Positions 1 to 60,384 of a DNA stretch of 64,000 nt are shown here, piece after piece. The stretch's first letter is position 1. The number at the start of each line of letters is the position of its first letter. The stretch covers positions 488,190-552,189 of the forward strand of contig JAAOMT010000494.1 of assembly GCA_016748015.1 (NCBI GenBank). Reading direction: 5' to 3'. The position numbers were made by a program, and so were the translations under genes. The stretch is from Geosiphon pyriformis uo1 (lineage: Eukaryota; Fungi; Glomeromycota). The notes under the pieces are model-generated. The model saw only the letters and a list, made by a program, of their open reading frames with translations, had not been told where the DNA came from and ran no database searches.

Positions 1-1383
1 CAATGGAGCCAGCTCAAAGAGCTAATTACAGAATTTGCTGATATCTTTGCTGAAAACAACAATGACTTAGGAAGAACCAATTTGGTTCAACACCAAATTT
101 ATACAGGAGATGCCAAACCAAGAAGACAATAAGCATACTGAGTTGCTCCAGAAAGCCACCAATTCATCTAAAAAGAAGTACAACAAATGCTTAACAATGA
201 GCTCATCCAACCCTCCATAAGTCCTTGGGCTTCACCTGTAGTGCTAGTTAAAAAGAAAAATGGAAAGATACAATTTTGTGTTGACTACCGACAACTTAAC
301 AGTATTACAATTGGAGATGCCTACCCCTTTCCCCAAATTGATGACATGTTAGATGCCCTTGGAAAATCCAAATACTTTTCAACACTAGATTTAGAAAGCG
401 ATTACTGGCAAGTTGCTATGGATCCCAAAGATCATCCCAAAACAGCATTCACCACTCAAGGCGGAAATTACAAGTTCAATGTAATGCCTTTCGGATTATG
501 CAATGCACCAGCAACGTTTCAGAGATTAATGGATGTTGTGTACCAAGGACTTCTTTGGAAGTCAGTAGTCGTTTATCTTGACAATACTGATGTTTATTCT
601 TCATTGTTTGAATTACATTTAAAACACCTGCGAGAAGTTTTTCAACAATTACGAAAAGCAGGACTAAAACTCAACATCAAAAAATACTACTTTGGAAAAA
701 CAAGCTTGGCCTTCCTTGGTCATATTGTTAGTAAAGATGGAATCAAACTGGACCCTGAAAAAATCAGTGCTGTCAAAAACTTCAAAACTCCTCAAAACAC
801 TACAAAACTAAGAGGATTCATAGGGTTAGCCTCCTATTATCAGAAGTTTATCAAAAAATTCTCAGAAATTGCAAAACCTCTCAACCAGCTTATTACCAAA
901 AACATCAAATATGAATGGACTGCTGAATGCCAAAATGCATTTGAAATCCTCAAAGAAAAACTAACAACAGCTCTAATTCTCGCCTACTCAGATTTCAGCA
1001 ACCAATTCCGATTAGCAACAGATGCTTCGTATACTGCCTTTGGTGCTATCCTATCACAATTGGATGACAATAGAAATAAGCGAGTAATTGCCTATGCTAG
1101 CAGAACATTAAAACCAGCTGAAAAAAATTATCCTACCACTGAATTGGAAACAGCAGCTGTAATTTGGGCCCTACATCATTTCAACCTTTATCTTTGGCCA
1201 AAGGAATTCGATATTATCACTGATAATATTGGACTCAAATGACTTCAGAACAAAAATACTTAGCTAAACGCAAAACAAACCCGATGGACAGGATTTCTAG
1301 CAAACTATCGATACATAGTACATCATAAACCAAGAAAACTTCACACCAATGTTGACTGTCTCTTCAGAATGAGACAAAATTAG
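1..1383 (+). pseudogene. Gypsy reverse transcriptase-RNase H (A1), with premature stops
   Basis: SPWASPVVLV, FCVDYRQLN, STLDLES(D)YWQV, MPFGLCNAPATFQ, YLDN (YLDD), RNase H TDAS...E(L)E...TD. The frame ends RMRQN-TAG at 1381-1383. Confidence 0.95.
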
Positions 1384-1433
1384 AAAAAAAAAAACCAACA
1401 CTCAACTTAACTAACCAAAACAGCCAACAAACA

Positions 1434-2819
1434 ATGAATTTGGAAAACTACAACAATCTTAAACAATATTTGAAAACATTAACAATTCCAACAGATTGGT
1501 CTCCAGATGAAAAACATTGACTACAACAACAAGCCAAATAATATTTTCTACACAACAATATTATTTATCAGTGAAATTTCAAAAATCCAGACAAACCACT
1601 CAGATTAATACAAGAACAGGAAAAAGAGACTATATTATACAACATGCACTTAAATCTTTCATCAGCACACTTTGGAAAAGACAGCACCACCCAAAAAACA
1701 CTAGAATACTACTTTTGGCCTTGAATGAGAAAAGACATTCACGAATATGTCGAATTTTATGATAGTTGTTAAAGAAGAGAAAGAACACACCCTACTGAAC
1801 CATTAAACCCAATCAAAGTTGGACAGCCTTTTGACAGAATTGGTATTGATTTAGTCGGACCACTACCTATCACAAACCAAGGAAATTATTATATTGCAGT
1901 AGCTGTAGACTATCTTACCAAATGGCCTAAAGCCAGAGTCATTTAACGAGCAGATGCAAAATTAGTAGCAAACTTCATTTACAAAGACATCATTTGTAGA
2001 CATGGATGCCCAATAAAACTTTTATCTGATCAAGGAACACATTTTGTGAACAATTTAATCCAAAAAATTTGTGGATGATTTAATGTCAAGAGACCATTAT
2101 CTTCACCCTACCATCCATAAACCAATGGACTTATAGAACGTTTCAATAGAACATTGTGTGAATTATTAGCCAAAGTTTCAACTGATTTTGAGCAAGAATG
2201 AGATCTCTTTATTCCATCAGTGTTACTAGCATATAGAACACTAAAACAAGATACCACAAAACACACACCATTTGATTTAACTTATGGAAGGACAGCAACA
2301 TTACCAATTAGTTTTACAGTGGAAACATACCTAGCACAACCAATCAATAAAAACAATTTCCGGGAAACACTTCAGCGAAGAGCCTACACTCTGCTTAGCA
2401 CATTGGAAGAAAAACGATGAATAGCAGCCACCCATATTGAACATTCCCAAGCTCAACAAAAAAAATGGCATGATGACAAATTGCCTCCAGTCACCAATAA
2501 ATTTAAAATTGGAAACAAAGTTCTCTTACACAGAACTAAAGCTGAAAAACAATAGAGTGGAAAATTCGAAAATAAATGGGATAGACCATTTTTTATCCAT
2601 AAAGTTTTAGGCAACGGATCATAAAAGCTAAGACTTGATGACAAAATCCTAACAAAAGTTGCACATGGAGATTATTTAAAACACTATAATTCCAGAAACA
2701 ATCCTGAACTATTAATTCCACAAATTGGTATACATTCTTCTTTAATCAATCCCAAAGACATTCTCCAAAATTTAGAACCAATAGTTGTTATTAAACAACC
2801 TCCCAACTTGAACACTTAA
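1434..2819 (+). pseudogene. Gypsy integrase (A1), separate ORF with own ATG, about 10 premature stops
   Basis: ATG AAT at 1434, HHCC-type N-terminus, GIDLVGP / SDQGTHF / NGLIERFNRTL DDE motifs, GPY/F-like region, LEPIVVI tail, no chromodomain seen. Confidence 0.9.
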
Positions 2820-2941: not shown

Positions 2942-3661
2942 ATGTCTATTTCTCAAAACATTCAACAATTATCCCAAAAACTAATGTTAGCTTTAAAAAC
3001 AATACCCGAATTATTCATTACTATTACTGGAAATCACATTAATTATACCCAAACAGAAGTAGTTGCAAATTTAGCTCTAAATACACAAAAATATCACCCA
3101 TATAAGAAGAACACAAGAAGTTATTCTGGAATTCATTTACCAGAACTTTTGAAGCTTGCTTTAAGAGAAAACTTATTGCTCACTCCTATTAGTATTCCAC
3201 CAAATGTTACTATTCAACAAAAACTTCAACTGTGTCTTAATGAAGAAAATGGCAAATACCTCCCAATATATAGATATTTTTATATTAGAAAAACACTTCA
3301 TGAGCAAAAACTAGAGCTTATAGCAGCAAACCTTGCAAAAAAAGCTATTCGGAAACAATTTCACAATGAATTCAAGACAACAGCTGGGCCTACAAACAGT
3401 CATTATAAACTAAGAGCTGCTCTTAGACTTTATGACCTATTCTACACCTGTGAAAACGTCCTACAAAACCCAATTTTACAGCCTTTGAAGATTCAATACA
3501 TTGGAAAGCTCACAGAACTGAAATTTCAACAATTTTCAGACCAAATTTCTTCAATAATTTTGGATTATTATCTGGAAATTACAGACAGTACTTGGACTTT
3601 GATGGAGCTCAGTTTTGAGGAGAAGGTTATGTTACCAGACAAAATTAGAGATATTGTTTAA
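2942..3661 (+). CDS. Gypsy accessory ORF3 (239 aa, unknown function), intact; runs across the PPT into the 3' LTR
   Basis: Uninterrupted ATG-TAA ORF. A same-length orthologue is present in A2 (16872-17591) and diverged homologues in both B copies. Confidence 0.85.
   Translation: MSISQNIQQLSQKLMLALKTIPELFITITGNHINYTQTEVVANLALNTQKYHPYKKNTRSYSGIHLPELLKLALRENLLLTPISIPPNVTIQQKLQLCLNEENGKYLPIYRYFYIRKTLHEQKLELIAANLAKKAIRKQFHNEFKTTAGPTNSHYKLRAALRLYDLFYTCENVLQNPILQPLKIQYIGKLTELKFQQFSDQISSIILDYYLEITDSTWTLMELSFEEKVMLPDKIRDIV
3617..3629 (+). other. Polypurine tract of A1
   Basis: GAGGAGAAGGTTA immediately precedes the TGTTAC LTR start; the same tract is present in A2. Confidence 0.8.
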
Positions 3662-4611
3662 CATAAAATTACCCTTATAAATCTTATCATTAATTAGCAT
3701 ATATTATCATTCAAATTATCACTTATTACATTAGCAAAATATCCGAAATTATCATTTAATTAATAACCTAATTTGTATATAACACAAATGTAACCTAATT
3801 GTGATGATTAATAATGCAATACTCTGGACTATGTAACATTCAAAAAGTTTGCTGAAATTTGTAAAAAATTTGCCGAAATAATTGATAGTTTGCCGAAATA
3901 TTTAATAGTTTGCAGAAATAACTTGTAGTTTGCCAAAATGTATCTTTAGTTTAGCGAAATTATAGAAAATAGCAAAGTTCAAGTTCATAGAATAGTGTTA
4001 CAACAAGTTGTATAAAAGAAGAGCTTCTCTCTTCAAGAAAATATATCTTACTTCAGATTTAATAATTAGAATCATCCTTTACATACAAAAACAAAATAAA
4101 TATCAAATAATTCAAAAAATCAAATCCTTAATTATTTTCCTTTTAAAATTAACCAATTCCTACTAAAACAGTTTTGAAATTGATTAGCTACTAATTTCAA
4201 TAAACTGTTAGTGACTTCAGACCTGGATAGAAAAACGTTTCCTTTGATAAAATTCTATTTCTTTTACATTTCTTTTATTTTTCTTTTCTTTTCTTATTAC
4301 AATCATTAGGGTAGTCTACAGACGAGATTCCTGTAGAAGAGTTGACTTTCACAGCAAAGTAACTACACATTTTAGTGAGCTTCCAGACAAGCAATTCCTG
4401 GGAAAGAGTTGACATTTACTACAACATAACTATACAAAGTAACTGGCACGGAATTGGCCCTTCCACTTATAAGCCCAACAGTTTAAATTATAGGAGATAA
4501 TTTGAAGATAAATTCAGTTACTAAAGATTTAACTACTTCCTGAAAACATGAATTCACAACAAATCAATATTAACAACATTCAAGAAAAGAGACCAAAAAC
4601 CTCTGGTAACA
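3630..4611 (+). repeat. 3' LTR of A1 (982 bp)
   Basis: Perfect 10-bp terminal inverted repeat TGTTACCAGA...TCTGGTAACA. Homologous and equal in length to 15922-16903. Confidence 0.93.
3848..3965 (+). repeat. Tandem array of about six 20-21 bp units (core TTTGCCGAAAT) in the family A LTR
   Basis: tttgctgaaat / tttgccgaaat / tttgccgaaat / tttgcagaaat / tttgccaaaat / tttagcgaaat read directly; the array is also present in the A2 LTR. Confidence 0.85.
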
Positions 4612-7243: not shown

Positions 7244-9080
7244 ATGGGTAGAATAAATATACCAGTTAATATGGCAGAGAAAAAAATTGTTAACAAGAGA
7301 GAAATTATCTTTACTCATCAATCAATTTTTATTTTACTATATAACCAATATATGCTAGCCATAGAAAAGGGAGTAAAAGATCAAGCTCAAATTTTTGAAG
7401 CAGAAACTACTATGTGTGAACCAGAGAAGATTGGACTTACCAATTTTTATATATTAGTCAAAAGTCTAAAAAATATCAAAATTTCTATCTACAACATAAC
7501 AGGAAATGTTCTTGAGATACCAAAAAGAACTACCATCAGATATTTAAGTACTGAAGTTAAAAAACAACTACCAAACCCCATTCCAGACTTTCCACAACTG
7601 TGTGAATATGTGGATATCATATTACAAACAATATATGGACAAGAAGAATATTATCTGCTCTAGCCAGAACAATTAGAACAGATAAACTTGGGAAATCTAA
7701 ACCCACTATAATATATACAGCTTAAAATATTACTCAATAATTTTAATAACATCTTTGCCAGTGAAAATAAATTTGGCAGAAGTGACATAATCCAGCATCA
7801 GATCAAGACTGGAGATATAATGCCAATCAAACAAAGAGCATATAGAATATAACCAGTTAGTTATGAGATCATTTGTCAAGAAATTAATTGAATGCTTAAC
7901 AATGGGTTAATTCAGCCATCAATAAGCTTATGGTCATTACCAGTAATACTAGTTCATAAGAAAAATAAGAAAATTTGCTTTTGTATAGATTACTGAAAAC
8001 TAAATAGAGTAACAAAAGGAGATAACTACCTAACTTCAAATATCCAAGAACTGTTTGACACTTTTGAAGGAAAAAAATGATTCTTAACTTTAGACTTAGA
8101 CAGTGGTTACTGGCAAATAGCCATAAAACCAGAAGATAAGGAAAAAATGACTTTTACAACTCAAGAAAGAAATTTCAAATTTGAAGTTATGCTATTTGGC
8201 TTGATGAATGCTTCTGCCACATTTCAACAGCTTATGAAAATTGTCTATATTAAACTGCTATAAAAATCAGTAGTCATATATCTGGATGACACCAATGTGT
8301 TTTCCAAAACATTTGATAATTATTTGTATTATTTCTAACAAGTATTTAAAAGACTAAAAAGAGCCAAACTAAAGCTAAATACCACTAAATGCTTCTTTGG
8401 CAAAACAGAATTGAAGTTTTTGAGACATGTCATAAGCAAAGATAGTATTAAAACAGATTCAGACAAAATTGAGATAGTTAAGAACTTTTCAGTACCCACT
8501 AACTTGACTGAATTATGAACATTTTTGGGATTTGTAAGATACTACCACTATTTTATCAAAAACTTTTTTAAAATAGCTCAATCATTATACTAGCTCTAAA
8601 CAAAGAATACCAAATATGATTGAATGAAAACCCAGTAAAAAGCTTTTGATACATTAAGAAGAAAGCTTATTCAAGCTCCAATATTGATCTATCTGGACTA
8701 CAGCAAATCATTCATCATTACCACTAATGCATCTGGCCAAGCATTAGAAGCAGTATTATCTCAGAAAAGACTGAATAAACAAGAACACTCAGTAGTTTAC
8801 ATCAACAGAAGCTTAAGTTCAGCTAAAAAGAACTATGAAACTTCAGTACTAGAACACTTAGCTATCTATTAAGCTGTCAGCAAATGGAAAGAATACTTGA
8901 GTCAAAAGTTTGATGTTTATACTAATTATAAAAGACTGACTTCAATTCAAAAGCAAGAATTTGGAGATAATTGTCATGTCAGATAGAAGATAGAACTTTT
9001 ATTATTCAATTATACAGTATATTACAAAAAAAAAAAAAAATGGAAATGCTGATGGCTTGTCACAAATAAGACAAATCTAA
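7244..9080 (+). pseudogene. B1 pre-RT domain, RT and RNase H (many stops)
   Basis: [26 protein letters not shown], RNase H ITTNASG. The frame ends RQI-TAA at 9078-9080. Confidence 0.9.
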
Positions 9081-9110
9081 GAACATTTCAACTCAAAAAT
9101 ATAACAAAAG

Positions 9111-10493
9111 ATGAATATACAAAAATATTAACAATTCCAACATTATATTAATATCCAACAATTCAAGAAGAAATTATCTTCAAAAGAACAAAGCCATATT
9201 AAACAACAATCCAAATATTTCATTACTGACCAAGAGATACTTTATCAAAAAAACAGAAAAAATTCAGATCAATTAACCAGAGTAATCACAAAACCAGAAA
9301 AAAAAACAATATTGTTTAACATGTACTCAGATCCAACAGCAAAACATTTTTATAAAGAAACAACCATGGAAAGAACCAGAAAAAAATACTATTAGTCATC
9401 AATATATTCAGATATTATTCAATATGTTCAAAATTGTAATGCTTGTCAAAAAAGAGGAGAAACAAAACCCAGTGAACCATTAAGATCAATCAAAGTGAGA
9501 CAACCATTTGACCACATTGGAATTGATTTAGTTAGACCATTAACAATAACCAGTAAAAGAAACAAATATATTGCAGTAGCCATAGATTATTTTACTAAGT
9601 GGTCAGAAGCAAAAGCCATTCAAAAAGCAGATGCAGAATCTGTTGCCAAATTTATTTATTAAGATCTAATTTGTCAACACGGATGTTCAAAAGAACTACT
9701 ATCAGATCAAAAAACTTACTTCATAAACAAAACACTAACAAAACCAAGTCAAAGATTTGAAATCAAAAAACCATTATTATTATCATACTATTCACAAACA
9801 AATGGGTTAGTTAAAAAGTTTAATAGAACATTGTGTAAAGCAATTGCTAAAATTAGCCAAGAAAAGCAAGACAAATGAGATTTGTTCATACCATCAGTAT
9901 TATTTGCTTATCAGACAATAAAGCAAGATATTACACAAGCAACACCATTTGAATTAGTATACAGTAAAACAGCAGCATTACTAGTTAAGATAGAAGTCAA
10001 CACATATCCAACTGAACCAATAACAAAAGACAATTTCCAAGAAACATTGTTGAAAAAAACATATGAATTAATAGAAATACTAGAAAACAAATGATAAAAA
10101 ACAGCTGATAATATTCAAAAGTCACAAAAAAAACAAAAAAAAAGACACAATAACCAATTACCAGATAAATCAGTTGAATTTAAGATTGGAAACAAATTAC
10201 TTTTACATTATACCAAAGCAGAAAAACAATGGAATGGAAAATTCAATCCCAAATGAGATAGATTATTTCACATACAAGAAATTCTTGGAAATGGAGCTTA
10301 TAAATTAAGATAAGACAACAAAATCTTAACCAAAGCAGCACATGGTGATCAACTGAAACCATACTACCATATAGTATTATCATCTACCAATAATATTCCA
10401 CAACTGGAAGTACAATGAATACTAGTCCAACCAAATAAAATTCCATGAGATTTGAAACCAATTATAATCATTGAACCAAACATGTCAAATTGA
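9111..10493 (+). pseudogene. B1 integrase (separate ORF, decayed)
   Basis: ATG AAT at 9111, GIDLV, LSDQ, NGLVKKFNRTL, KPIIII tail, TGA at 10491-10493. Confidence 0.85.
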
Positions 10494-15921: not shown

Positions 15922-16903
15922 TGTTACTGGAGGTTTTTGGTCTCTTTTTAGCTCTTGTATGTTTGTTGTAATGCTGTTAATTCACGATTATGGAAAGTGT
16001 TTGAACCTCCGATAACTGAATTTATCTTCAAATTATCTCCTATAATTTGAACTGCTGGGCTTATAAGTGGAATGACCAATTCCGTGCCAGTTGCTTTGTG
16101 TAGTTACATTGTAGTAAACATCAACTTTTTTCCAGGAATTGCTCGTCTGGAAGCTCACTAAAATGTGTAGTTACTTTGCTGTAAAAGTCAACTCTTCTAC
16201 AGGAATCTCATCTGTAGACTACCCTAATAATTATAATAAGAAAATAAAAGAAAGAAAATAAAAAAAATGTAAAAGAAATAGAATTCTGTCAAGGAAAACG
16301 TTTTCTATTCAGGCCTAGAATCACTAACAGTTTACTGAAATTAGTAGCTAATCAATTTCAAAATGTTAGTTGGGTTTTGAGAATTTTCTAAGTGTAATAA
16401 TTAAAGAATTTGGTTTTTCAAATTATTTGATATTTATTTTTTTTTGTGTGTATAAGAACAGTTCTAAGAGGTAAATCTAAAAGTAAAATACATTTTCTTG
16501 AAGAGAGAAGCTCTTTTTTTATACAACTTGTTATAACATTATTCTATGAACTTGAACTTTGCTCTTTTCTACAATTTTACCAAACTAAAGATACATTTCG
16601 GCGAACTACAAGTTATTTCTGCGAACTATTAGATATTTTGGTGAATTATCAATTATTTCAGCAAATTTCTACAAATTTTGGCAAACTTTTGAATGTTACA
16701 TATTTCGGGGTATTGCATGATTGATTATTGTACTTAGGTTACATTTGTGTTATGTACAAATTAGGTTATTAATTAAATGATAATTTTGGACATTTTGTTA
16801 ATGTAATAAGTAATAATTTGAAACAATAATATATGCTAATTAATGATAAGATTTATAAGGGTAATTTTATGCTAAACAATATCTCTAATTTTGTCTGGTA
16901 ACA
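15922..16903 (-). repeat. 3' LTR of A2 (982 bp)
   Basis: TGTTAC...GTAACA termini; reverse-complement homologue of 3630-4611. Confidence 0.92.
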
Positions 16904-17591
16904 TAACCTTCTCCTCAAGACTGAGCTCTGTCGAAGTCCAAGTACTGTCTGTAATTTCCAAATAATAATCCAAAATTATTGAAAAAATTTGGTCTGAAAA
17001 TTGTTGAAATTTCAGTTCTGTGAGCTTTCCAATGTATTGAATCTTCAAAGGCTGTAAAATTGGGTTTTGTAGGACATTTTTACAGGTGTGGAATAGGTCA
17101 TAAAGTCTAAGAGCAGCTCTTAGTTTATAATGACTGTTTGTAGGTCCAGCTGTTGTCTTGAATTTATTGTAGAGTTGTTTCTGAATAGCTTCTTTTGTGA
17201 GGTTTGCTGCTATAAGCTCCCATTTTTGTTTGTGAAGTGTTTTTCCAATGTAGAAATATCTATATATTGAAGTATAGTTGTAGTTTTCTTCATTAAGACA
17301 CAGTTGAAGTTTTTGTTGAATAGTAGCATTTGGTAGAATACTAATAGAGGTGAGCAATAAGTTTTCTTTTAAAACAAGCTTCAAAAGTTCTGGTAAATGA
17401 ATTCCAGAATAACTTCTTGTGTTCTTCTTATACGGATGATATTTTTGTGCATTTGGGGCTAAATTTGCAACTACTTTTGTTTGGATATAATTAATGTGGT
17501 TTTCAGTAATAGTAATGAATAATTTGGATATTGTTTTTAAAGCTAACATTAGTTTTTGGGATAATTGTTGAATGTTTTGAGGAATAGACAT
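16872..17591 (-). CDS. Gypsy accessory ORF3 (239 aa), intact, copy in A2
   Basis: Ungapped alignment with the 2942-3661 product; no stops. Confidence 0.85.
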   Translation of the reverse strand: MSIPQNIQQLSQKLMLALKTISKLFITITENHINYIQTKVVANLAPNAQKYHPYKKNTRSYSGIHLPELLKLVLKENLLLTSISILPNATIQQKLQLCLNEENYNYTSIYRYFYIGKTLHKQKWELIAANLTKEAIQKQLYNKFKTTAGPTNSHYKLRAALRLYDLFHTCKNVLQNPILQPLKIQYIGKLTELKFQQFSDQIFSIILDYYLEITDSTWTSTELSLEEKVMLPDKIRDIV

Positions 17592-17713: not shown

Positions 17714-19099
17714 TTAAGTGTTCAAGTTGGGAGATTGTTTAATGACAACTATTGGTTCTAAATTTCGGGGAATGTCTTTGGGATTGATTAAAGAAGAATG
17801 TGTATCAATTTGTGGAATTAATGGTTCAGGATTGTTTCTAGAATTATAGTGTTTCAAATGATCTCCATGTGCAACTTTTGCTAGGATTTTGTCATCAAGT
17901 CTTAGCTTATATGATCCATTGTCTAGGATTTTATGGATAAAGAATGGTCTATTCCATTTATTTTCAAATTTTCTACTCCATTGTTTTTCGGTTTTAGTTC
18001 TGTGTAAGAAAACTTTGTTTCCAATTTTAAATTCATTGGTGACTGGTGGCAATTTGTTGTCATGCCGTTCTTTTTGTTGAGCTTGGAAGTGTTCAATGTG
18101 GTTTGCTGCTATTCGTCATTTTCTTTCCAATGTGCTAAGCAGAATGTAGGCTCTTTGTTGTAGTGTTTCCTGAAAGTTGTCTTCATTAATTGGCTGTACT
18201 GGGTATGTTTGCACTGTGAAACTAATTGGTAATGTTACTGTCCTTCCATAAGTTAAATCAAATGGTGTGTGTTTTATGGTATCTTGTTTTAGTGTTCTAT
18301 ATGCTAGTAACACTGATGGAATAAAGATATCCCATTTCTGCTCAAAATCTGTTGAGACTTTGGCTAAAGATTCACACAATGTTCTGTTAAAACATTCTAC
18401 AAGTTTATTTGTTTGTGGATGGTAGGATGAAGATAATGGTCTTTTAACATTGAATTGTTCACAGATTTCTTGAATTAGATTGTTTACAAAATGTGTTTCT
18501 TGATTGGATAAAAGTTCAATTGGGCATTCGTGTCTACAAATAATGTCTTCGTAAATGAAGTTTGCTACTGATTTTGCATCTGCTTGTTGAATGGCTCTGG
18601 CTTCAGGCCATTTGGTGAGATAATCTACAGCTACTGTGATATAATGGTTTCCTTGGTTTGTAATAAGTAGTGGTCTGACTAAATTGATACCAACTCGGTC
18701 AAAAGGCTGTCCAACTTTAATTGAATTTAAAGATTCTGTAGGGCGAGTTCCTCCTCTTCTTTGACAACTATCACAAGATTTAATGTATTCATGAATGTCT
18801 TTTCTTATTTGAGGCCAAAAGTAATATTCTAGTGTTCTTTGGGTGATGCTGTCTTTTTCTAAGTGTGCTGATGAAAGGTCTGAGTGCATATTATATAAAA
18901 TGGTTTCTTTTTCATGTTTTTGTATTAATCTGAGTGGATTGTCTGGGTTTCTGAAGTTTCAATAATAGATCATGTTGTTGTGTAAGAAGTATTGTTTGGC
19001 TTGTTGTTGTAACTGATGTTTTTTATCTGAGGACCAATCTGTTGGGATTGTTAATGTTTCCAAATATTGTTTAAGATTGTTGTAGTTTTCGGGGTTTAT
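17714..19099 (-). pseudogene. A2 integrase (separate ORF; start ATG>ATA)
   Basis: H-H-C-C (MHSD..AH..CDSC), GINLV, LSNQ, NKLVECFNRTL, KWNRPFF, LEPIVVI. Confidence 0.88.
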
Positions 19100-19145
19100 T
19101 GTTTGTTGTTTTGTTGTTAATTCAAATGGGTGTTGGTTTTGTATT

Positions 19146-20530
19146 CTAATCTTGCCTCATTCTTGAAAGACAATCAATATTGGTATGGAGTTTTCCTGGT
19201 TTGTGGTGTACAATATATTGGTAGTTAGCTAAAAATTCTGTCCATCGGGTTTGTTTGGCATTTAGCTGAGTGTTTTTATTTTGAAGCCATTTGAGTCCAA
19301 TATTATCAGTAATAATGTCGAATTTTTTAGGCCTAAGATAAAGGTTGAAGTAATATAAGGCCCAAATTATGACTGCTGTTTCTAGTTCTATGGCAGGATA
19401 GTTTTTTTTGGCTGGTTTTAATGTTCTGCTAGCATAAGCAATTACTCGCTCATTTCTATTGTCATCTAATTGTGATAAGATGGCACCAAAGACAGTGTAA
19501 GAAGCATCTGTAGCTAGTCAAAATCAGTTACTGAAGTCTGAGTAGGCGAGAATTGGAGCTGTTGTTAGCTTTTCCTTGAGAATTTCAAAAGCTTTTTGGT
19601 GTTTTTCTATTCATTTGTATTCGATGTTTTTAGTAGTAAGCTGGTTGAGGGGTTTTGCGATTTCTGAGAATCTTTTAATAAATTTTCGGTAATAGGATGC
19701 TAATCCAATAAATCCTCTTAATTCTGTGATATTTTGTGGAGTCTTGAAGTTTTTGACAGTGCTGATTTTTCTGGGGTCTGGTTTAATTCTATCTTTGCTC
19801 ACAATGTGGCCAAGAAAGACCAAACTCATTTTTCTGAAGTAGTATTTTTTAATGTTCAGTTTTAATCCTGCTTTCTGTAATCGTTGAAAAACTTTGCACA
19901 GGTGTTTTAAGTGTAATTCAAAAGATGGTGAATAAACATCAATATTATCGAGATAGACAACTACTGATTTCCAAAGGAGGTCTTTGTAAACAACGTCCAT
20001 GAGTCTTTGGAATGTTGCTGGTGTATTGCATAATCCGAAAGGCATTATGTTGAACTCATAGTTTTCTCTTTGAGTGGTGAATGCTGTTTTGGAGTGATCT
20101 TTGGGATCCATGGCAACTTGCCAGTATCCACTCTCTAAATCTAATGTTGAAAAGTATTTGGACTTCCCAAAAGCATCTAGCATGTCATCAATTCGGGGAA
20201 GAGGGTAGGCATCTCTAATGGTGACACTGTTGAGTTGTCGATAATCAACACAAAATCATATTTTTCTATTTTTCTTTTTAACTAAGACCACAGGTGAAGC
20301 TCATGGACTTATTGATAGTTAAATAAGCCTATTGTTGAGCATCCATTGTACTTCTTCACAGATAAATTGGTGACTTTCTGAAGCAACTTGGTAAACTTAC
20401 TGTTGCCTTGGTTTGGCATCTCCTGTATAGATTTGGTATTAAACCAAATTAGTTCTTTCTAAGTTATTGTTGTTTTTGGCAAAGATATTGGCAAATTCTG
20501 CAATTAGCTCTTTGAGCTGGCTCTGTTGTT
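19146..20530 (-). pseudogene. A2 RT-RNase H
   Basis: STLDLESGYWQV, YLDNIDV. The frame ends SRMRQD-TAG at 19148-19146. Confidence 0.92.
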
Positions 20531-20988
20531 GTGATTCAAGTTGTTTTATGTTAATTCAAGATAGTTTTTCTATGACAACATGGTAGTTTTCAGAGCTGGG
20601 GTTTGGGTTGATTTTTGGTAGTGAATGTCCAATAATTTCAGAGAAATCGGGGACTGTTTGGAGTAATTCTTGTTGAAAGATATTACTGTGAATAACTCTA
20701 ATTTCTAAGTTATTTAATAAAACTATGGAATAATTGTTGGGATTGTAAAAAGTAATTCAGACTTTCTTTGTTCCTTCTAGAATATAAATGTTTGGGATCG
20801 AAATATTATGTTCCAAGCAGACTTGTTTGTTGGACTCAAAAATTTGTCATGTGGTTGTTGGCTTTTCACAAGTGTAAATTTCAGGGTGTTCTCCAAAGAG
20901 TGAAATAGTAATTGGTTGTGGAAGTCATAGAATCTGGTAAGATTCATTTTGTTCATTAAGAGCTATGTTTACTAGAACTGTGAATTGT

Positions 20989-21379
20989 CCAGTTGAACCA
21001 AAATCATTGGTTCTTCTTCCACTTTTTCCCAATTGTTCTCTTTGACTGACTAATTATAAACTCGAAATGTTGATTAAGGGTAAATAAATAGCTTGAGCAA
21101 TTTTTTCAGCATGTTCAATCTGAAAAGATTTATCGGTTTCATTTTGTAACATGATTGTAATGTCTCCTGTATATTTAGCATCTATAATTCTTCCTCTAAC
21201 ATTAATTCCTTTGCTTGCCAATGATAATCATGAAGTGATTTAGACCATTGTTTCTGGTAAGATTTTGAGAGCAATTTTGAGGTTGATTTTGGTAAGGGAA
21301 TTTGGTTGAAAAACCAAAGTGTCTTTTCCTGGATATTGTAGATCGTATTCAGCATCAATTTCATGTGCTTTTTCCAGTT
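20989..21379 (-). pseudogene. A2 dUTPase domain
   Basis: DAEYDL, RGRIIDAKYTG, EKIAQAI, RRTNDFGSTG motifs with stops and a frameshift. Confidence 0.82.
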
Positions 21380-22232
21380 TTATTCCTTGTCCATTGTTGT
21401 TGAAGTATTTGAGTTATGAAACAGACTGATTTTCAATAAGATAGATAGGTGTTGTTTCAATTTCTTCTGTTGCTTCAGGTTCTTCGAATTCAATTTTGTA
21501 TTTATTACTTTTGCTGGACAATAGAATGCTAAGAGCATAGCATTCAGGACACCATTGTTTGTCACATGGCATTATACACTCCTCACATAATTTAATGTTC
21601 ATTTGCTCTAATCATTAAATTTGAGCTTCTTGGGTCGAGTAGATGTGACTTGCAATTTGGTGGTATACTTCTACTTTATTTTCATAATCAAATTCAGCTA
21701 ACTCCATGGTGTATTCAATGTATTCTGCTTCTTTCATTTAACAAACATCTTCTTTGGTAGCTCCATTAACTAATGCCATTGCTAGGTCGAAAATCATCTC
21801 AGCATCATGGGGATAGTGATAAAGTTTGTTGAAAGCATTGTTGTATGCTGCATCAAAAGGTATTCCTCTTTTGACTTTTTCTGAAATTGATAAAGCATAT
21901 TGGCAGGTTTGATCACAGACTCCTCCTTTCATTGCTATATCAATCCAATTGCATTCTTCTGATAGTATATCTCCACAAGTCAAACAAAAGGTGTTGTCCT
22001 ATTTTCCACTTCCTTTTATTAGATGGCCCCATCATTCTCTGTGGCAAGTCTTGCAGTAATAACAAGTATGATTTTCATATTCTTCTTCAGGTGAAATGCA
22101 GGCTCCCATTAAGGAGAGTTTCTTGTGACAGTCCTTGCATTTGAGTGGAATGTAAGGGTGTCATTTCTTTGATTCTGGTTTAGAATATGGGATGTTCCAT
22201 CCAGGGGTTTCTGGTTTCTCTGGATAATTAAC

Positions 22233-50277: not shown

Positions 50278-51139
50278 TGTTACTCATAGAAATATAGGAA
50301 ATATATTAATATAATTATTAGCCAATCAGAAGTAAGCATAGTAAATATGAAATTCCAGGATTCTTCTCAAAAATTGCAGAATTTCAGAAATTTCAGAATT
50401 CCCTGACAAAGAATTGCAGGATTCCAGAATTCCAGGATTCTTCTCAAAAGAATTGCAGGATTCCAGGAATTCCAGAATTCCTGTCGTGAAGAATTGAGGA
50501 ATTGAGGAATCTTAATTATGTATATATAGTGGTAGTGTTAGAAACAGAAAAGACAGAATCGATACCACAGAATTCTTAGCCAAAAAACAAAATCATCAAA
50601 TAAATAATTATTCCATATCTCAATCCACTTTCCACTATCAATACTTCATGTTGATAGTAATTGATACTTAACCACACTGGAACAATAGCTCTTGATCATG
50701 GCTATTGACGGAATACTAATCTGCCCAACTGCCTGGGCTTATTTCTTTTCTTTCTTTATTTTCTTTCATTTTTCTTTATTTTATTTTTTTTTGTTGTTTA
50801 CTAATTGAGTAAAAAGATTAAGCACTAAGTTATTGATGTCAAGAATAGCCTGGTAAAAGACCCAGAAATAAAGATAGAATTTTATATATTATCAGATAGC
50901 TTACCAGAAGAGCATAACTACCAGACTAAATCCGGCCACTATGCTGAGAAAGAAATTGGGAAAACTCTTGGAAAGATACATCTACTATTAACACTATTGA
51001 ATCTCTGTCCATTATACAAAGGACTCCATCAAAACCTTCAGACACAACACCTTCAGAACATCATCAACGGAAGTAGCTTTTGAGTACCAAGTTACAGGTT
51101 TGTTATTTAATTCAACAGTAGAAACAATCCTCTGTAACA
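50278..51139 (+). repeat. 5' LTR of B2 (862 bp) with GGATTCCAG/GAATTGCAG tandem array at about 50350-50510
   Basis: TGTTAC...GTAACA; direct repeat of 59543-60384. Confidence 0.95.
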
Positions 51140-51141
51140 TT

Positions 51142-51158
51142 TGGTGCTTCCTGTGAGG
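51142..51158 (+). other. tRNA primer binding site TGGTGCTTCCTGTGAGG
   Basis: Starts 2 nt after the LTR with TGG (complement of CCA); implies a tRNA ending CCUCACAGGAAGCACCA. Confidence 0.85.
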
Positions 51159-51201: not shown

Positions 51202-54200
51202 GTGGCAGAATCAGAAAATATAGAAGCAAACCATTTAGGATTCGCAAAATCCTTATTTCAACACTATTGTCAATACTTGGGATTAAACCACAATTATATA
51301 TCTGCCGAATCAGCCTTTAATTTCTATGTCAACGAAAAGATTTCCTCTTTATTAGAAACACCAATAAATACTGAATCAGCAAGAGAAACTTTTTATAAGG
51401 AATTAATTCAAAACACCAACCTACCAACAAATCATAATTTCACATCCATCATTACTAAGATCAACAAAGAAATTGAACATCATACTCAACAAAAATATCC
51501 AATTACATATGCTAGTAAAGGCAAGGGAAAATTACAAACACCAGCAGTAACACCCAGAAAAATACAGCCACCTGCTTAGAAGAAAAACAGAGTTGAATCC
51601 CCAAGCAACCCATCCTACCACTATACACCTGGAAGCACCATTAACATACTATCAACAGACACGTTTCCATCAACTGTGACATCAGCATTTGGATGATTTC
51701 CATTCCAAAGTAGACAAAGGAAAACAGAATTGTTAGGACCATATGGCAAATACTTTAAGGGATTTAATTCACAATTATCAACCCTATTAAGATTTCGATC
51801 ACCACTGTCTCCACCAGATTTTGGAATCTCTGATCCATGGGAAGCAGCAGAATCAGAAAAAGAGGAAGAAAAATCAGAGGATCAAGAATTTACTTATTAG
51901 CACCCGATTACTGAAAACCTGGAAATTGAAACCCCAAATTTTCAAATTCAGCAAAATTCAGATCTAGAAAATTTGGAAATCAAAACTTTGAATCATTAAA
52001 GACAGAACAATCCAAACTCCAAATTAATTAATCAGCAAAACTTACCTTCAGTAATCATCATCGATCAACTGCCAATTAATCCCATAACCGAATCTATACA
52101 GCAGCCATTTCAACTATCACCCTAACAACCAGTACAACAACAACTGCTTCAACAGCCACCACAACCACCTAACTTAGATCCAATGGCCTATGTCTCAATC
52201 ACAAAACTTGACAACTTTACTGGTAAAGAGAATGACGCTCAAGTATGGCTGAATGATGTAGAAAAGGCTATCGCAGCCAACAGATGGAATGATGCTCGAG
52301 CAATGCAAGCCATTCCCTACTTTCTTAAGGATATCACCAATTCATGGTACTAAAGCCTGATTAATAAACCACAAGATTTTAATGCTTTCAAAGCGGAATT
52401 CCTAAGATATTTTAGCAACAATAACAGCATCAATCGCCTAGTCAATACATTCACCATCATGAAACAAGAAGAAACTGAAGCAGTCACCACTTACCTGGAA
52501 CGCTTCCATCAAAACCTACACCAAATTCAAGCAATTGACGCCAACTATTTTACAGCACCACAGATACTCAATCAGTTTATCCATGGCCTGTGCAGCAGCA
52601 TCTTGCAACATGTATGTCTGTTGCATCCAGATACTCTTCAAGACGCAGTTACACATGCCAGAGATTTTGAATCCGCTGAGTCAGAGGCTAACCATGCCCA
52701 AGCCATTAATCTAGTAATGAATGGATTATCTAAATTGGATTCCAAATTGGAAAAGTTCAGTGAATCAATTAATAAGAGATTGGAAGAATACTTAGCTGAC
52801 AATTACGCCATTTATCAGCCTCCACAACGACACAATAATCAAGGAAACTCTAATCGTGCTCAAAATCAGCCACATCTATCTTCATCAACCAATCAATGGT
52901 AACAACAAGAAATGTATATCTGCCACTATTGTGGTAAACAAGGACACATCCAAATTGACTGTCATCAGTGTTTAAATAACTAATGATCAGGAAATCAATA
53001 TCAAAACTCTGATCACCAGTCCCAAACTCCAAATCAGTACCCAAATCAAAACCAACCCGCTTATCTACCAGTGATGCAGTCATCCATCTATCAGTCTCCA
53101 ATGTACCAAGCTCTAATCTATCAACCACAGCCACAAGTGATTTATTAACAACTGCAGCCACAAATAATCTATCAACCCCAACAAATCCAAACACCACCCC
53201 AAAGCTTACCACCCAACGGAACCCAAAGACTGAAAATAACTCAACAGAGCTGGAGATCGGCAATAGTAGTCCATCAACTGATCCTCAGTTCTTCACAGCA
53301 ATCATCTAAATTACGCCAGTGAAATTTGGGTACTGGTCAAACCCAAAACCCGAATTCCCAGAACTATTTAAGTCTCCTGGTCACCCCAGAAGACACCTCA
53401 GCCAATAACCCAGTATTCGCCCAAAAACAACTACTCACCAGTAATATCTCACCTGCTACCATCACTGAAGACGAGTTCTTGGCTGCTATTTTCCCATTCA
53501 AATTTGAAGAAACAGGTGCAATGACATTATTTAGTGGAGCCACTCTTGAAGCCAAACCAATCACCGCAATGTACACTGATGCCAAAGTCGAGGGACAATC
53601 CATCAAATTGATCTTTAATAGTGGTTTAGCAGACAGTATCATCACACGGCAACTCATGGAACAATTAGGATGCTGAGTTGATTGAGCTGCCAGCACCAGA
53701 ATCATTACAGCCAATGGAGTGACCAAAACTCTAATCGGCAAAATTGACGACTTCCCTTTCAAAGTACATAGCATTGTGACTCCCATTAAAGTTCTAGTGA
53801 TGGAAGCCACTCAATACCAAGCTCTCATTGGTAATAACTGGCTATTCAAAGTCAATGCAACGTTAGACTGGAACACCCAGGAACTCCAGCTAACATATCA
53901 AAGCCAATACATATGTGTACTGGCCATGTGTGGTCACTTCAAAACTCCTCCAAGAGAGAAACTATTGATTAAACTGGAAGAAGAGAAAGAGAAACCTACC
54001 TGAGAAGCCTACCAAGTGTCGTGGGCTGATGAAAAGCACAACAAACTGCTGCCAATACTCTCCTGGGACGACAATGACAATGGAAAAGGGAAACAAAAGG
54101 AAGAACTTATCTGGGAAACTGATGACTTGACCTGGACCGACAACAACAAAAGCAAACTGACTTCAAGCTGGGATTGGAAAAACAACAAAGAAGAAAAGAG

Positions 54201-57200
54201 AAAAGGGAAAAAGAAGGAGGAAAAAAACACTCAAGCCAACAACACTTATATCCCATACACCTATGGTCAACAACAACCATCGACCTATTGCCGACCCAAA
54301 CTGATATGTGTTGATTGCAACAAGAAATTGTCATCAATAGGTGCATGCTGTGGTGACGACGAAGAATATCAAATGGCAACCAAGTTCTATTGCTGCGCAT
54401 GCCATATCAAACGTTTTGGAAGACCAAAACAAATGGGAAAATAGGATAATATGCCATGTATAGCCTGTGAAGAAACTCTTCTGGATGAAGGGATGTGGAA
54501 TGACATCCCCAGACGTAAAAGAATGTGTGACATATCGTGTCAATACACAATTCTAATAAGCGACTGGGTAAGGAAAAAAACCCCAATAGAAGCAGCCTGG
54601 AGAAGAACCATACAGCAACTGAACAGTTGTCCACATGATGACAACAAAATTTGGTGAAAGGCACTCGCCAAAATTGAAGGGGCATCACCTGAAGAAATAA
54701 AAACAATCAAAGATAACCCCCCAGAATCTTTAGAGCTTGATTGGGATGCAGAACCCATCATAAATCTCCTAGATCTGGAACAATTCCACAAACACTACCA
54801 AGAGTTAGCACCCACAAGAGAAGAACAAGAACAATGGTTAGAGCAGTTGAACACTCGACTATATCAACACTGTCTAATTCTCTGTGACTTTCAGTATTGT
54901 GATGAGTGTGACCTCATTTACAATCCACCACCATGCATAATCTATACAATCCCTGAAGAAGAAGAACCAATTAGCAGATGTGCATTAGAATCGAAATCAA
55001 TTTTCAATCCTGATTCAAACTCCAACAATAATGATGACAAAAACACTGGTTCCAGCTTTGTTCAATATGGTGACAACAACAATACCGATTCCAACTCAGA
55101 TTCCAACTTCGATTTAAACTACAAACAATACATTGCATTATTAGATCTCTCCAAGAAACAAGAGTTGAAATGATATAGTGACAATGGGGAAAGTATTATG
55201 CCAGAACATACACATGATATGGATGTAGAGTTTGATCTGAGATATCCAGGAAAAAATGCCATCAAATTAGAACCATATTCATGCACCTGCATTGATCTGA
55301 AAATAGCACTAGAAATTCTGGCAACAACAATGGTTCAATTAGCATCTAGGAATAGTTTAGCGAAAAGAGGGATCAATATAAGAGAAGGAATAATTAATGC
55401 AGAATATGTAGAAAATATCATCGCCATGCTACAAAATGACTCAGAAAAAGCCTATATAATAGAGCTCAACGAAAAGATAGCACAGGCAATATTCTTGCCT
55501 TTGGTTAGAGTAGCTCAGTTAGTGTCAGTGAGAAAAAGGGAGAAATTAGGAATAACAGTGAAAGGAATACAAGGATTTGGATCAACGGGTAGAATAGAGA
55601 TACCAGTTAATATGGCAGAGAAAAAAATTGTTGGCCAAGGAGAAATTATTTCAACTGGTCAAGTTATTTCCATTCCACCATATAGCCAGTACATGCTAGC
55701 AATAGGAAGGAAAGAAAAGAAGCAAGAACAAATTTTTGAAGCTGAAGCAAACCTTTGTGAATCAGGAGAGATTGGGTTGATCAATCTCCACATACCAGCC
55801 AAAAACTATAGCAGCATAAAAATTTCCATCTACAACAACACTGGCAATGTCATCAACATACCAGAAAGAACCACTATCAAATATTTAACCACAGAAATAG
55901 AAGACCAACTACCAAACCCCATTTCAGACTTTTCACAACTTTGTAAATATGTTAACATCACATCACAAACAATCTATAGATGAGACAAATGTTATTTGCT
56001 CCAACCAGAACAATTGGAACAAATGAACATAGGAAACTTAGATCCACTCCAATGTATGCAGCTCAAGATGTTACTCAACAATTTCAATGACATCTTTGCC
56101 AGCAAAAATGAGTTTGGCTGAACTGACATCATCTAGCATCATATCAAGACTGGAGATACAATGTCAATCAAACAAAGAGCATACAGAGTGCTGCCAACCA
56201 GCCACGAGATCATTTGTTAAGAGATAAACAGAATGCTTGACAATGGGCTAATTCAACTATCAATGAGCCCATGGTCATCACCAGTGGTACTCATCCATAA
56301 GAAGAATAGAAAAATCCAGTTTTGTGTAGACTACAGGAAACTCAATGGTGTAACTCGTGGAGACAGTTATCCAACTCCATGAATACAGGAATTATTTGAC
56401 GCTTTTGGTGAGAACAAATAATTCTCAACATTAGATTTGGACAGTGGTTACTGGCAAGTAGCCATGAATCCAGCTGACAAAGAGAAGATGGCATTTACTA
56501 CTAGAGAAGGGAATTTCGAATTTGAAATGATGCCATTTGGCTTAACCAATGCCCCAGCAATTTTCCAACGGCTAATGGAAATTGTTTATACTGGCTTATT
56601 GTAGAAATCAGTAGTTGTATACTTGAACAACACCAATGTATTCTCAAAAACGTTTAATGATCATCTTCATCATTTTCAACAAGTGTTTGAAAGACTAAGA
56701 AGAAAAGGACTAAAGTTAAATGCAACAAAGTGCTTTTTTGGCAAGACAAAACTAAAATTCTTGGGACATATAGTTAGCAAAGATGGCATCAAAACGGATC
56801 TGGAGAAAATAGAGATAGTAAAGAACTTTCTAGTGCCAACCAATATGACAGAACTAAAATCATTCTTGGGATTCACCAACTACTATCAACATTTTATCAA
56901 GAACTTTTCCAAGATAGCACAGCCACTCAACCAACTGCAAAACAAAGATACAAAATATGAATGGACCGAAAATCAACAAAAAGCTTTTGATATTCTAAAA
57001 AGAAAGCTTATACAAGCTCTAGTACTGATCTATTCAGATCACTACAAACCGTTCATCATCACCATGGATGCATTTGGCCAGGCATTAAGAGCAGTACTAT
57101 CTTAGAGAAAACCAGATGGCAGAGAACATCCAGTGGCATATGCCAGCAGAGGTTTAACACTGGCTGAAAAGAACTATGAAACACCAGAAAAAGAACACTT

Positions 57201-57423
57201 AGCAATATACTGGTCAGTCATAAAATGGAAAAAATATTTGAGCCAGAAGTTTGAAGTGTATACAGATCACAAAGGATTAACATCACTTCAAAAACAAGAA
57301 TTTGGAGATGGAAGACAGTCAAGATGAAAAATGGCACTCATACCATATAAGTACACTATACATTATAAAAAAGGAAAAGACAATGGAAATGCAGATGGTT
57401 TATCATGAATGAGACAAATCTAA
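51202..57423 (+). pseudogene. B2 polyprotein in one frame: N-terminal helical domain, capsid, CCHC knuckle (52921-52962), Q/P-rich linker, aspartic protease (~53560-53930), Cys-rich domain (~54300-54930), dUTPase (55198-55590), RT, RNase H
   Basis: All ORF-track fragments from 51202 to 57327 listed here share one frame. CHYCGKQGHIQIDC, LIFNSG (DSG), [19 protein letters not shown]. Internal stops are explicable as CAA/CGA/TGG transitions. Confidence 0.92.
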
Positions 57424-57486
57424 GAACATTTCAACCCAAAAATATAACAAAACCAGAACAATACCAACGAAAAAATACAACAAAAG

Positions 57487-58845
57487 ATGAACATACAAAA
57501 ATATCAACAATTACAACATTATATAAACACTCAACAGTTCAAGGAGAATTTATCTCAAATGGAACAAAAGAGTATCAAACAACAATCAAAATATTTTATC
57601 ATTCACTGAAATATGCTTTATTGGAAAAATAGAAGGGACTCAGATCAACCAACCAGATTAATTACAGAACCAAAAAAAGAGACAATATTATTCAACATGC
57701 ACTTAAATCCAACAGCAGGACATTTTCACAAAGAAGCAACCATAGAAAGAACCAAAAAAAGATACTATTGGCCATCAATGTACCCAGACATCATTCAATA
57801 TGTTCAAAATTGTGATGCTTGTCAGTGAAGAGAAGAAACAAGACCCAGTGAACCATTAAGACCAATCAAAGTAGAACAACCATTTAACTGTATTGGAATT
57901 GATTTAGTTGGATCATTAATAATCACCAGCAGAGGAAACAGATACATAGTAGTAGCTATGAACTATCTCACTAAATGGCCAGAGGCAAAAGCAATTCAAA
58001 GAGCAGATGCAAAATCCATTGCCAAATTCATTCATCAGGATTTGATTTGTCGACATGGATGTCCAAAAAAATTATTATCAGACCAGAAAACTCATTTTGT
58101 AAACAGAACATTAACAGAATTGAGCCAAAGATTCGGAATCAAGAGACTATTATCATCATCATACCATCCACAAACCAACGGATTAGTAGAAAGATTCAAT
58201 AGAACACTGTGTAAAGCAATAGCTAAGCTCAGCCAAGAAAACCAGAACAATTGGGATTTGTTCATATCATCAGTACTATTTGCTTATTGAACAATGAAAC
58301 AAGATACTACACAAGCAACACCATTTGAATTAGTATATGGGAGAACAGCAACATTACCAGTAGAGAGAGAAATTAAGACATATCCAGCTGAACCAATAAC
58401 AGAAGAAAATTTTCAAGAAACATTGCTGAGAAGAACATATGACTTAATAGAAACATTGGAAAACAAATGAAAAAGAGCAGCTAATAATATTCAAAAGTCA
58501 CAAAAAAAACAGAAAGAAAGACATAATAGTCAACTACCAGACAAACCAGTTGAATTTAAGATTGGAGACAAAATATTACTACATCATACCAAAGCAGAAA
58601 AACAATGGAATGGACCATTTCACATAGAAGAAATTCTAGGAAATGGAGCTTACAAATTAAGATTGGATAACAAAATTTTAACCAAAGCAGCACATGGAGA
58701 TTGACTGAAGCCATATCATGACATCACACTACCATCTACCAGTAATATTTCACAATTAGGAGTACAAAGAATACTAGTCTAACCAGATAAAATTCCACAA
58801 GATCTGGAACCAATTGTTATTATCAACAACAACACATTAAATTGA
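57487..58845 (+). pseudogene. B2 integrase (separate ORF)
   Basis: ATG AAC at 57487; MH..AGH..CDAC, GIDLVG, LSDQKTHF, NGLVERFNRTL, WNGPF, LEPIVII. Confidence 0.9.
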
Positions 58846-59542: not shown

Positions 59543-60384
59543 TGTTACTCATAGAAATATAAGAAATATATTAACATAATTATTAGCCAATCAGAAGTAA
59601 GCATAGTAAATGTGGAATTTCAGGATTTCTCTCAGGAATTGCAGGATTCTAAGAATTTCAGGATTTCCCAACAAGGAATTGCAGGATTCCAGAATTGCAG
59701 AATTCTTCTCAAAGGAATCACAAGATTCCAGAAATTCCAGGATTCCTGTCGTGAAGAATCGAGGAATTGAGGAATCTCAATTATGTATATATAGTGGTAG
59801 TATTAGAAACAGAAAAGACAGAATTGATACCACAGAATCCTTAGCCAAGAAACAAAATAATCAAATAAATAATTATTCCATATCTCAATCCACTTTCCAC
59901 TATCAACACTTCATGTTGATAGTAATTGATACTTAACCACACTGGAACAATAGCTCTTGATTATGGCTATTGATGGAATACTAATCTGCCAAACCGCCAG
60001 GGCTTATTTCTTTTCTTTCTTTATTTTATTTTTTTTTATTGTTTACTAATTGAGTAAAAAGATTAAGTGCTGAGTTATTGACGTCAAGAATAGTCTGGTA
60101 AAAGACCCAGAAATAAGAGTAGGATTTTATATATTATCAGATAGCTTACCAGAAGAGCACGACTACCAGACTAAATCCGGCCACCATGTTGAGAAAGAAA
60201 TTGGGAAAACTCTTGAAAAGATATATCTACTATCAACACTATTGAATCTCTGTCCATTATACAAAGAACTCCATCAAAATCTTCAGACACAACACCTTCA
60301 GAACATCATCAACGGAAGTAGCTTTTGAGCACCAAGTTACGGATTTGTTATTTAATTCAACAACAGAAACAATCCTCTGTAACA
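59543..60384 (+). repeat. 3' LTR of B2 (842 bp), preceded by PPT 59528-59542
   Basis: Direct repeat of the 5' LTR. Confidence 0.95.

Follow-up and report, generated by a model that had tools for sequence, protein, structure and literature searches.

We analysed a 64,000-nucleotide stretch of the genome of the glomeromycotan fungus Geosiphon pyriformis uo1 (GenBank assembly GCA_016748015.1, contig JAAOMT010000494.1, positions 488,190 to 552,189), hereafter the window, which carries four dead copies (A1, A2, B1, and B2) of Gypsy-type retrotransposons with long terminal repeats (LTRs). In all four copies, the open reading frame (ORF) encoding reverse transcriptase (RT) and RNase H (RH) ends at a stop codon, and the integrase (IN) follows 30–63 nt downstream as a separate ORF. 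This arrangement had been reported in the initial annotation, and its coordinates for the stops, IN starts, and spacers were found to be right for every copy (Table 1). By DNA identity, the copies pair up as A1/A2 (87%) and B1/B2 (75%).

Table 1. Features of the four element copies in the window (positions in the window; PBS, primer-binding site).
Feature	Position	Strand	Remarks
A1 RT-RH, 3' part of ORF1	1..1383	+	Ends with TAG 1381-1383
A1 Pol-IN spacer, 50 nt	1384..1433	+	A/C-rich; no ATG; no predicted structure; CTAAC then CAG inside
A1 integrase ORF, own ATG	1434..2819	+	Decayed; internal stops
A1 ORF3, 239 codons, open	2942..3661	+	Weak match to the clade ORF3 family (iE 0.0025)
A2 dUTPase-RT-RH part of ORF1	19146..22172	-	Ends with TAG 19148-19146; interrupted upstream by another repeat
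A2 Pol-IN spacer, 46 nt	19100..19145	-	No ATG; no AG
A2 integrase ORF, start reads ATA	17714..19099	-	H2C2, rve, weak SH3-like tail; no chromodomain
A2 ORF3, 239 aa, open	16872..17591	-	No Pfam match
B1 RT-RH	7667..9080	+	Decayed; one frameshift within a poly-A run; ends with TAA 9078-9080
B1 Pol-IN spacer, 30 nt	9081..9110	+	Second in-frame TAA 9 nt ahead of the ATG
B1 integrase ORF	9111..10493	+	B1 ORF3 begins with ATG 10518, 24 nt downstream
B2 5' LTR (TGT...ACA)	50278..51139	+	Target duplication ACAG before; PBS-like TGG motif from 51142
B2 ORF1: Gag, protease, dUTPase, RT, RH in one frame	51202..57423	+	Ends with TAA 57421-57423
B2 Pol-IN spacer, 63 nt	57424..57486	+	Holds a second in-frame TAA, at 57445; lacks ATG; unstructured by prediction
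B2 integrase ORF, own ATG	57487..58845	+	H2C2 and rve
B2 ORF3, ~219 codons	58870..59529	+	Starts 24 nt past the IN stop; ends at the purine tract; match to the clade ORF3 profile not significant
B2 3' LTR	59543..60384	+	90% identical to the 5' LTR; target duplication ACAG after

The junction stop was located four residues past the RH-terminal S-R/S-Q/S-X of the NADxLSR motif in each copy, and the relatives described below end there too. None of the four spacers contains an ATG. As had been claimed, the spacers cover all three frames (phases 2, 1, 0, and 0 for A1, A2, B1, and B2), and those of B1 and B2 are in frame and each hold a second TAA 24 nt past the first. The spacer length of family A is not fixed from the window alone: the two copies are 4 nt apart in length, and a poly-A run is present in A1.

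The LTR element B2 is complete, having 862-nt and 842-nt LTRs that are 90% identical, TGT...ACA termini, a 4-bp ACAG duplication, a PBS-like TGG motif at 51142, and a purine run ahead of 59543. Its ORF1 comprises 2073 codons without a frameshift and encodes Gag, protease (PR), dUTPase, RT, and RH, with the capsid domain recognized by Retrotrans_gag (7e-10) and Ty3_capsid (4e-6). The domain order PR-RT-RH-IN with a Gypsy-type integrase is present in the window elements, and the proposed tri-cistronic design (Gag-PR-dUTPase-RT-RH / IN / ORF3) holds for B2 and for the relatives with open frames. An ATG at 50941, inside the 5' LTR, is in frame with ORF1, so translation of B2 Gag may begin within the LTR and continue across the PBS. 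A Cys-rich region without a Pfam match lies between the protease and dUTPase in both families (~54200-55100, and 21400-22170 on the minus strand).

All four copies are heavily decayed by C-to-T and G-to-A changes, with 28 stops among the 2074 codons of B2 ORF1, and the chance sharing of stops was therefore tested. Stops at the same codon in both copies numbered two in 921 aligned codons of family A (23 private) and four in 873 of family B (26 private). Contigs of DNA run X1, which is possibly the source sample and not independent, were aligned to the B2 junction (80% likeness, 7776 pieces). A sense codon at the B2 stop was looked for in these family B contigs, and none was found among the 40 best-supported of 171 differences; none of these 40 affected the second TAA or the ATG either. 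A sense variant in the minority could be among the other 131 differences. Position 57478 reads T in 78% of the depth, which gives a further TAA 9 nt ahead of the B2 ATG. Nothing in runs X2 and X3 aligned to the B2 junction.

Relatives were collected from proteins and from metagenomic DNA, many of them from soil. The IN protein search, limited by length, matched 1110 protein clusters (257–819 aa), and 100 of the 120 listed homologues share the same start Met within 3 residues. Named matches came from Rhizophagus (41–48%) and from one Geosiphon pyriformis protein (75% over part of IN); Rhizophagus irregularis has relatives whose frames are open. The metagenome scan covered 6 of the 64 parts of the collection, in which about 6600 stretches were estimated for the search patterns, fused elements included, and 80 loci were fetched with their DNA context. 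RT-RH was present upstream of IN in 43 of these loci and not in 37. Where IN was 38–52% identical to a stand-alone homologue and RT-RH lay upstream, all 17 loci were split; their frames are open on both sides of the junction, and several have stops elsewhere. The 26 loci at 30–37% IN identity comprised 20 fused elements, two clean splits (L046 and L053), and four broken copies. Since all 17 close relatives are split while 20 of the 26 distant ones are fused, the comparison indicates that the split is inherited and not a product of decay, and we regard a separate, conserved IN as virtually certain.

A different origin of the stops, by decay of CAA or CAG codons to TAA or TAG in an ordinary fused Pol, would fit the heavy C-to-T decay of the window copies and the in-frame spacers of family B. 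However, relatives whose frames are open on either side of the junction retain the stop, stops common to two copies are rare within the window, and the T at 57478 adds one more TAA before the B2 ATG. The explanation was rejected with next to no probability left to it, as it would need mutation of all the relative loci and is contradicted by their long open frames. The earlier claim that the shared stop is unlikely to be random decay was thus borne out, and the survey of related DNA for the same layout showed that relatives keep the stop. The layout had been described for two families; both show it, but it is far wider, and some relatives have more than three cistrons.

IN was missing from 48 of the 65 best-scoring long RT-RH proteins (of 120 listed), of which 26 end at most 30 aa past RH and 22 have a long tail without IN. 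In these 22 proteins, an acidic Cys/His-rich tail of 160–400 aa is fused after RH (L010 3497-4438; P0309, P0319, P0324, and others); it had no Pfam family in L010 and co-occurs with the hairpin described below in several loci. A search for long IN proteins returned three close fused entries (39–45%), all gene models of arbuscular mycorrhizal (AM) fungi, and the rest were weaker, mostly near 30%. Six fused Rhizophagus/Cetraspora gene models (P0125–P0127, P0304, P0310, and P0318), made up of these three entries and another three from R. clarus, lack the last RH motif or more, and because this C-terminal motif is dropped, the fusions are likely predicted introns skipping the stop. L006, L014, L031, and L038, in which no RT lay upstream, were considered as stand-alone transposases and rejected, as the RH C-terminal tail was found upstream of IN in each. 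In viral contigs, one search for relatives returned none and another returned three weak partial matches. The Gag/Pol boundary varies, being in one frame (B2 and L010), at an in-frame stop (L005 at 872 and L023 at 3360), or at a frame change (L012 at 2919 and L015 at 3147). L022 has a Gag-like frame ~1.2 kb past IN and ORF3 (3139-4293), which suggests tandem elements.

Quick trees were constructed with support from the Shimodaira–Hasegawa-like approximate likelihood ratio test (SH-aLRT), and rows shorter than 230 aa (200 aa in one tree) were left out. The window copies fell within a branch of 18 split rows and one fused row in the IN tree (SH-aLRT 96) and within a branch of 15 split rows in the RT+IN tree (SH-aLRT 98). 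The split label required 3–4 changes on the trees, compared with 13–18 in shuffles, and the split layout is thus clustered. The nearest outside group consisted of fused plant elements (support of 82–90 in the IN and RT+IN trees, weak and unstable). These rows are named only as plant proteins, and we take them to be non-chromodomain Gypsy elements of the Athila/Tat type.

The distance from the Pol stop to the IN start was determined for 23 junctions and ranged from -11 to +727 nt. Stop and start overlap or adjoin in six junctions (-11 to +5 nt), TAATG and ATGA forms among them; 13 junctions have gaps of 30–163 nt, four have gaps of 278–727 nt, and all three phases occur. ATG is avoided in the spacers of 25–200 nt (1 observed vs. 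7.7 expected, P ~0.004), and the gaps from IN to the next ORF (-4 to 129 nt) are ATG-free in nine of ten loci. Two long spacers contain real ORFs of 83 and 67 codons (1 in 2000 shuffles each). Extra ORFs of 67–238 codons were observed between Pol and IN in L028, L021, and L005, and most of the junctions stay coupled. For example, the L028 chain (Pol / 83 aa / 85 aa / IN) is joined at +32, -13, and -8 nt, and that of its relative L021 is joined by two ATGA overlaps. The spacers of A1 and B2, the two that were folded, are unstructured by prediction.

Overlapping junctions and coupled ORFs are what serial termination–reinitiation predicts, and for this reason we lean, with limited confidence, toward termination–reinitiation on a polycistronic RNA. 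The initial annotation had held that either reinitiation or subgenomic RNA would be needed; the overlaps, ATG-poor spacers, and coupled chains favor reinitiation and do not settle the choice. Under this mechanism, a single LTR-driven RNA would serve as the polycistronic message. A fraction of the ribosomes ending the Gag-Pol frame would scan the short, unstructured, ATG-free spacer, produce IN, and then produce ORF3; where stop and start overlap, ribosomes would restart at once. Whereas ordinary elements release IN by a protease cut, here the stop/start would take over that task and would keep IN less abundant than Gag-RT-RH. Entry of IN into the particles would be non-covalent, the simplest route being attachment in cis to the RNA or to the polyprotein made beside it.

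Dependence of a downstream ORF on translation of a long upstream ORF is described for the fungal viruses CHV1 and HvV190S, where it proceeds by reinitiation as in the retrotransposon SART1, as well as for caliciviruses and for LINE-1, whose ORF2 depends on ORF1 translation (PMC10275272, PMC2881922). The UAAUG/AUGA overlaps of such systems are also found in L015, L053, and L021. None of these systems concerns the integrase of an LTR element, and the spacers here are often longer and the chains reach at least four cistrons. The LINE-1 spacer is 63 nt long with two in-frame stops, like that of B2. Cauliflower mosaic virus requires the transactivator TAV for its own reinitiation and has no integrase. 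It resembles the present elements in being reverse-transcribing with several close ORFs read by reinitiation (PMC10275272), whereas ORF3 here has no match to solved or viral structures.

In nine loci of a subclade (L010 at 4461-4503, L006, L008, L014, L025, L031, L033, L038, and L044), a conserved 40-nt motif ends 5–17 nt before the IN ATG. It is a covarying hairpin whose bulges are a large purine-rich one and a single A; L009 has a shortened variant (22-65). The motif has 20 invariant columns, and 96% of the cells pair, compared with 21–47% in slid controls. Seven of the 13 pairs change on both sides (0–2 of 500 shuffles), while the integrases downstream are 49–67% identical to each other. 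Covariation therefore gives the hairpin support that is strong but not formal, because the structure was derived from the same sequences and the shuffle test ignores relatedness. Rfam gave no match at E 10, and the hairpin model had no matches in the viral contigs or bacterial genomes. It did not match the window junctions, the only window match being a weak one of 26 nt at 54650. The 727-nt spacer of L023 (6706-7432) contains part of the hairpin 3' sequence together with a TATA-like run and short direct repeats, three in number, and is a candidate internal promoter or insertion.

Several observations weigh against a reinitiating lineage of single descent. Viral reinitiation of the TURBS (termination upstream ribosome-binding site) type weakens beyond ~30 nt (PMC10275272), a limit that the window spacers (30–63 nt) and most spacers of the relatives reach or exceed; a start within ~20–30 nt of the stop was found in 6 of 19 relatives and at none of the window junctions. 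Reinitiation after long ORFs over long gaps has been argued in a review to be improbable (PMC3894237). Ahead of the conserved IN Met, L023 has 727 nt of spacer in which 12 short frames begin with ATG, L005 has seven ATGs, and L046 has three. The avoidance of ATG is equally compatible with the 5' untranslated region (UTR) of a subgenomic RNA, and spacers of 30–160 nt could reflect the length of an ancestral RH-IN linker, such linkers being ~12–30 aa in the fused proteins P0132 and P0316. One origin of the split is not established, given the 3–4 changes and the unstable deep branches of the trees, and the fused Gag-Pol-IN protein P0316 nests inside the split group, where it may represent a re-fusion. 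In addition, the hairpin before the ATG in nine loci ends in an invariant YAG, compatible with a splice acceptor.

This last point leads to the most serious rival, in which IN and ORF3 are translated from subgenomic mRNAs that arise either from an internal promoter or, in the way of retroviral env, by splicing of a 5' donor to an acceptor before the IN ATG. The invariant YAG lies 5–17 nt before the ATG in the nine loci, and the bulged A, likewise invariant, is 8 nt away from the end of the AG; before the ATG, CTAAC is followed by CAG in A1 and TAAC by AAG in B1 and B2. Spacers without ATG would suit a 5' UTR, and the 12 upstream ATGs in the 727-nt spacer of L023 also speak for this rival. However, the spacers of A2, L016, and L029 contain no AG, and none follows the variant hairpin of L009; the A that would act as branch point lies hidden within a covarying stem; each further cistron would require its own acceptor; and neither the stop/start overlaps nor the overlapping ORF chains are predicted by splicing. 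Because the bulged A, the YAG, and the CTAAC/CAG of A1 fit, but A2, L016, and L029 have no AG, we retain subgenomic RNA as an unlikely yet substantial alternative. The conserved hairpin could instead recruit ribosomes internally, in the manner of an internal ribosome entry site, or tether them where IN begins, whether or not Pol translation has terminated. Its invariant columns and two-sided pair changes upstream of divergent integrases are in line with such a role, as are G-U pairs that fit the sense strand and the structure that SART1 requires downstream of its stop (PMC10275272). Yet the motif is missing from the window junctions and most split loci, its folding is weak (z above -1 in eight of nine), and the window spacers are unstructured by prediction, which makes this explanation improbable.

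Production of a Pol-IN fusion by stop readthrough, frameshifting, or a stop-removing intron was judged more doubtful still. It agrees with the single in-frame TAA and open spacer of L016 and L018, with an IN frame open across the Pol stop in A1, A2, L019, L041, and L043, and with the six fused public gene models. Nevertheless, readthrough and frameshifting cannot be general because the gaps take all three phases and because 10 of the 17 close loci, as well as B1 and B2, have another stop in the IN frame after the Pol stop and ahead of the ATG. A shared intron restoring the fusion was looked for across the 23 junctions and none was found: an in-frame GT-AG fusion is impossible in three and consensus-like in only three. 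The loss of at least the last RH motif from the fused gene models is what introns predicted across the stop would produce, and a conserved Met would be unnecessary in a fusion. Little probability is thus assigned to it.

Most split relatives have an ORF of 120–230 aa past IN that belongs to one family (496 clusters at 50% identity). The family was predicted to be all-helical (predicted local distance difference test score, pLDDT, of 88); no Pfam family was found, Foldseek searches of PDB and BFVD returned no match at E 0.001, and the highest VIA Z was 5.0. Atlas neighbors were a closterovirus coat (0.94) and a phage translation repressor (0.92), with low shared features, and are leads only. 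When the ORF3 profile was built without window-like members, the ORF3 of A1 and A2 were its two best window matches, although weak (independent E-values, iE, of 0.0025 and 0.023), and the ORF3 of family B had no significant match. As a guess, ORF3 might be an accessory factor for packaging or translation. A fourth ORF past ORF3 was observed in L004 (3226-3781), L006 (2984-3217), and L010 (6804-7436); the three are mutually related and share a His/Cys motif.

The elements share with Ty3/Gypsy (Metaviridae, e.g., yeast Ty3) the LTRs, the PBS-like and purine tracts, the Gag capsid, and the order PR-RT-RH-IN, and among solved structures, Ty3 Gag-Pol matched the IN profile best (E 4e-52). They differ in having IN as its own ORF, a non-Env ORF3 after it, and a dUTPase between PR and RT. 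The ICTV profile of Metaviridae places IN inside pol (PMC7879559), whereas a stop after RH and a separate IN start were found in all four window copies and all 17 close relatives. Because IN is not encoded within pol, the lineage is classified from its sequences as a Ty3/Gypsy-like variant and not as a canonical member. A chromodomain, a feature of chromoviruses, was absent from P0001 and P0002 at E 0.01 and from the precomputed domains of the 120 listed IN matches. An N-terminal YPYY motif has been linked to Athila/Tat-related integrases, including Gypsy-1-I_RO (PMC2836005). Unlike the window lineage, the plant Gypsy elements to which we presumptively give the Athila/Tat label have IN fused to Pol. 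In Ginger1 DNA transposons, too, a Gypsy-like integrase is encoded by a gene of its own, the termini are TGT, and 4-bp duplications occur; they differ in their terminal inverted repeats, in the use of CCGG/CCGT targets, and in having protease domains at the C-terminus, and they lack RT (PMC2836005). B2 has TG...CA ends and a 4-bp duplication as its insertion signature; its identity as Ginger1 was rejected, as it has LTRs, an ACAG duplication, and RT upstream.

No description of a stand-alone-IN layout was found in the open literature; Repbase, GyDB, supplements, and subscription papers were outside the scope, and curated entries may note it. The available parts of the papers on transposable elements of AM fungi, the DAM-retrotransposon preprint, a mycovirus review, and a Mucor paper do not describe it. 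We tentatively propose, as a reading that is possible and still short of probable, that a large undescribed LTR lineage in mycorrhizal fungi is organized as a polycistronic operon (Gag-Pol / optional ORFs / IN / ORF3 / ORF4), with serial reinitiation, non-covalent packaging of IN, and a new hairpin at the IN start and a new helical ORF3 family controlling the relay. In the textbook view, the integrase of LTR retrotransposons and retroviruses reaches the particles inside the Gag-Pol polyprotein; a successful lineage without this link must make, dose, and package integrase in another way. If the proposal is true, a free-standing IN gene could be a missing step between Gypsy elements and Ginger1 DNA transposons. 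The 'reverse evolution' scenario (PMC2836005) calls for an intermediate of this sort, an IN gene that stands free and has a start of its own. In fungi, the lineage supplies naturally occurring cases in which reinitiation past very long ORFs could be tested, along with a candidate RNA element and a putative accessory protein. Many 'DDE transposase' and intron-fused gene models in the annotations of mycorrhizal fungi are likely parts of such elements.

Another repeat family with long ORFs occupies 22173-28600, 35564-42100, and 44000-50250 of the window; its copies are 65–68% identical, and it interrupts A2 and abuts the 5' LTR of B2. By impression only, we take this family to be similar to long interspersed nuclear elements. 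The region 30899-31627 on the minus strand is presumably a host gene fragment, with a translation that seems to resemble the regulatory region of aspartate kinase.

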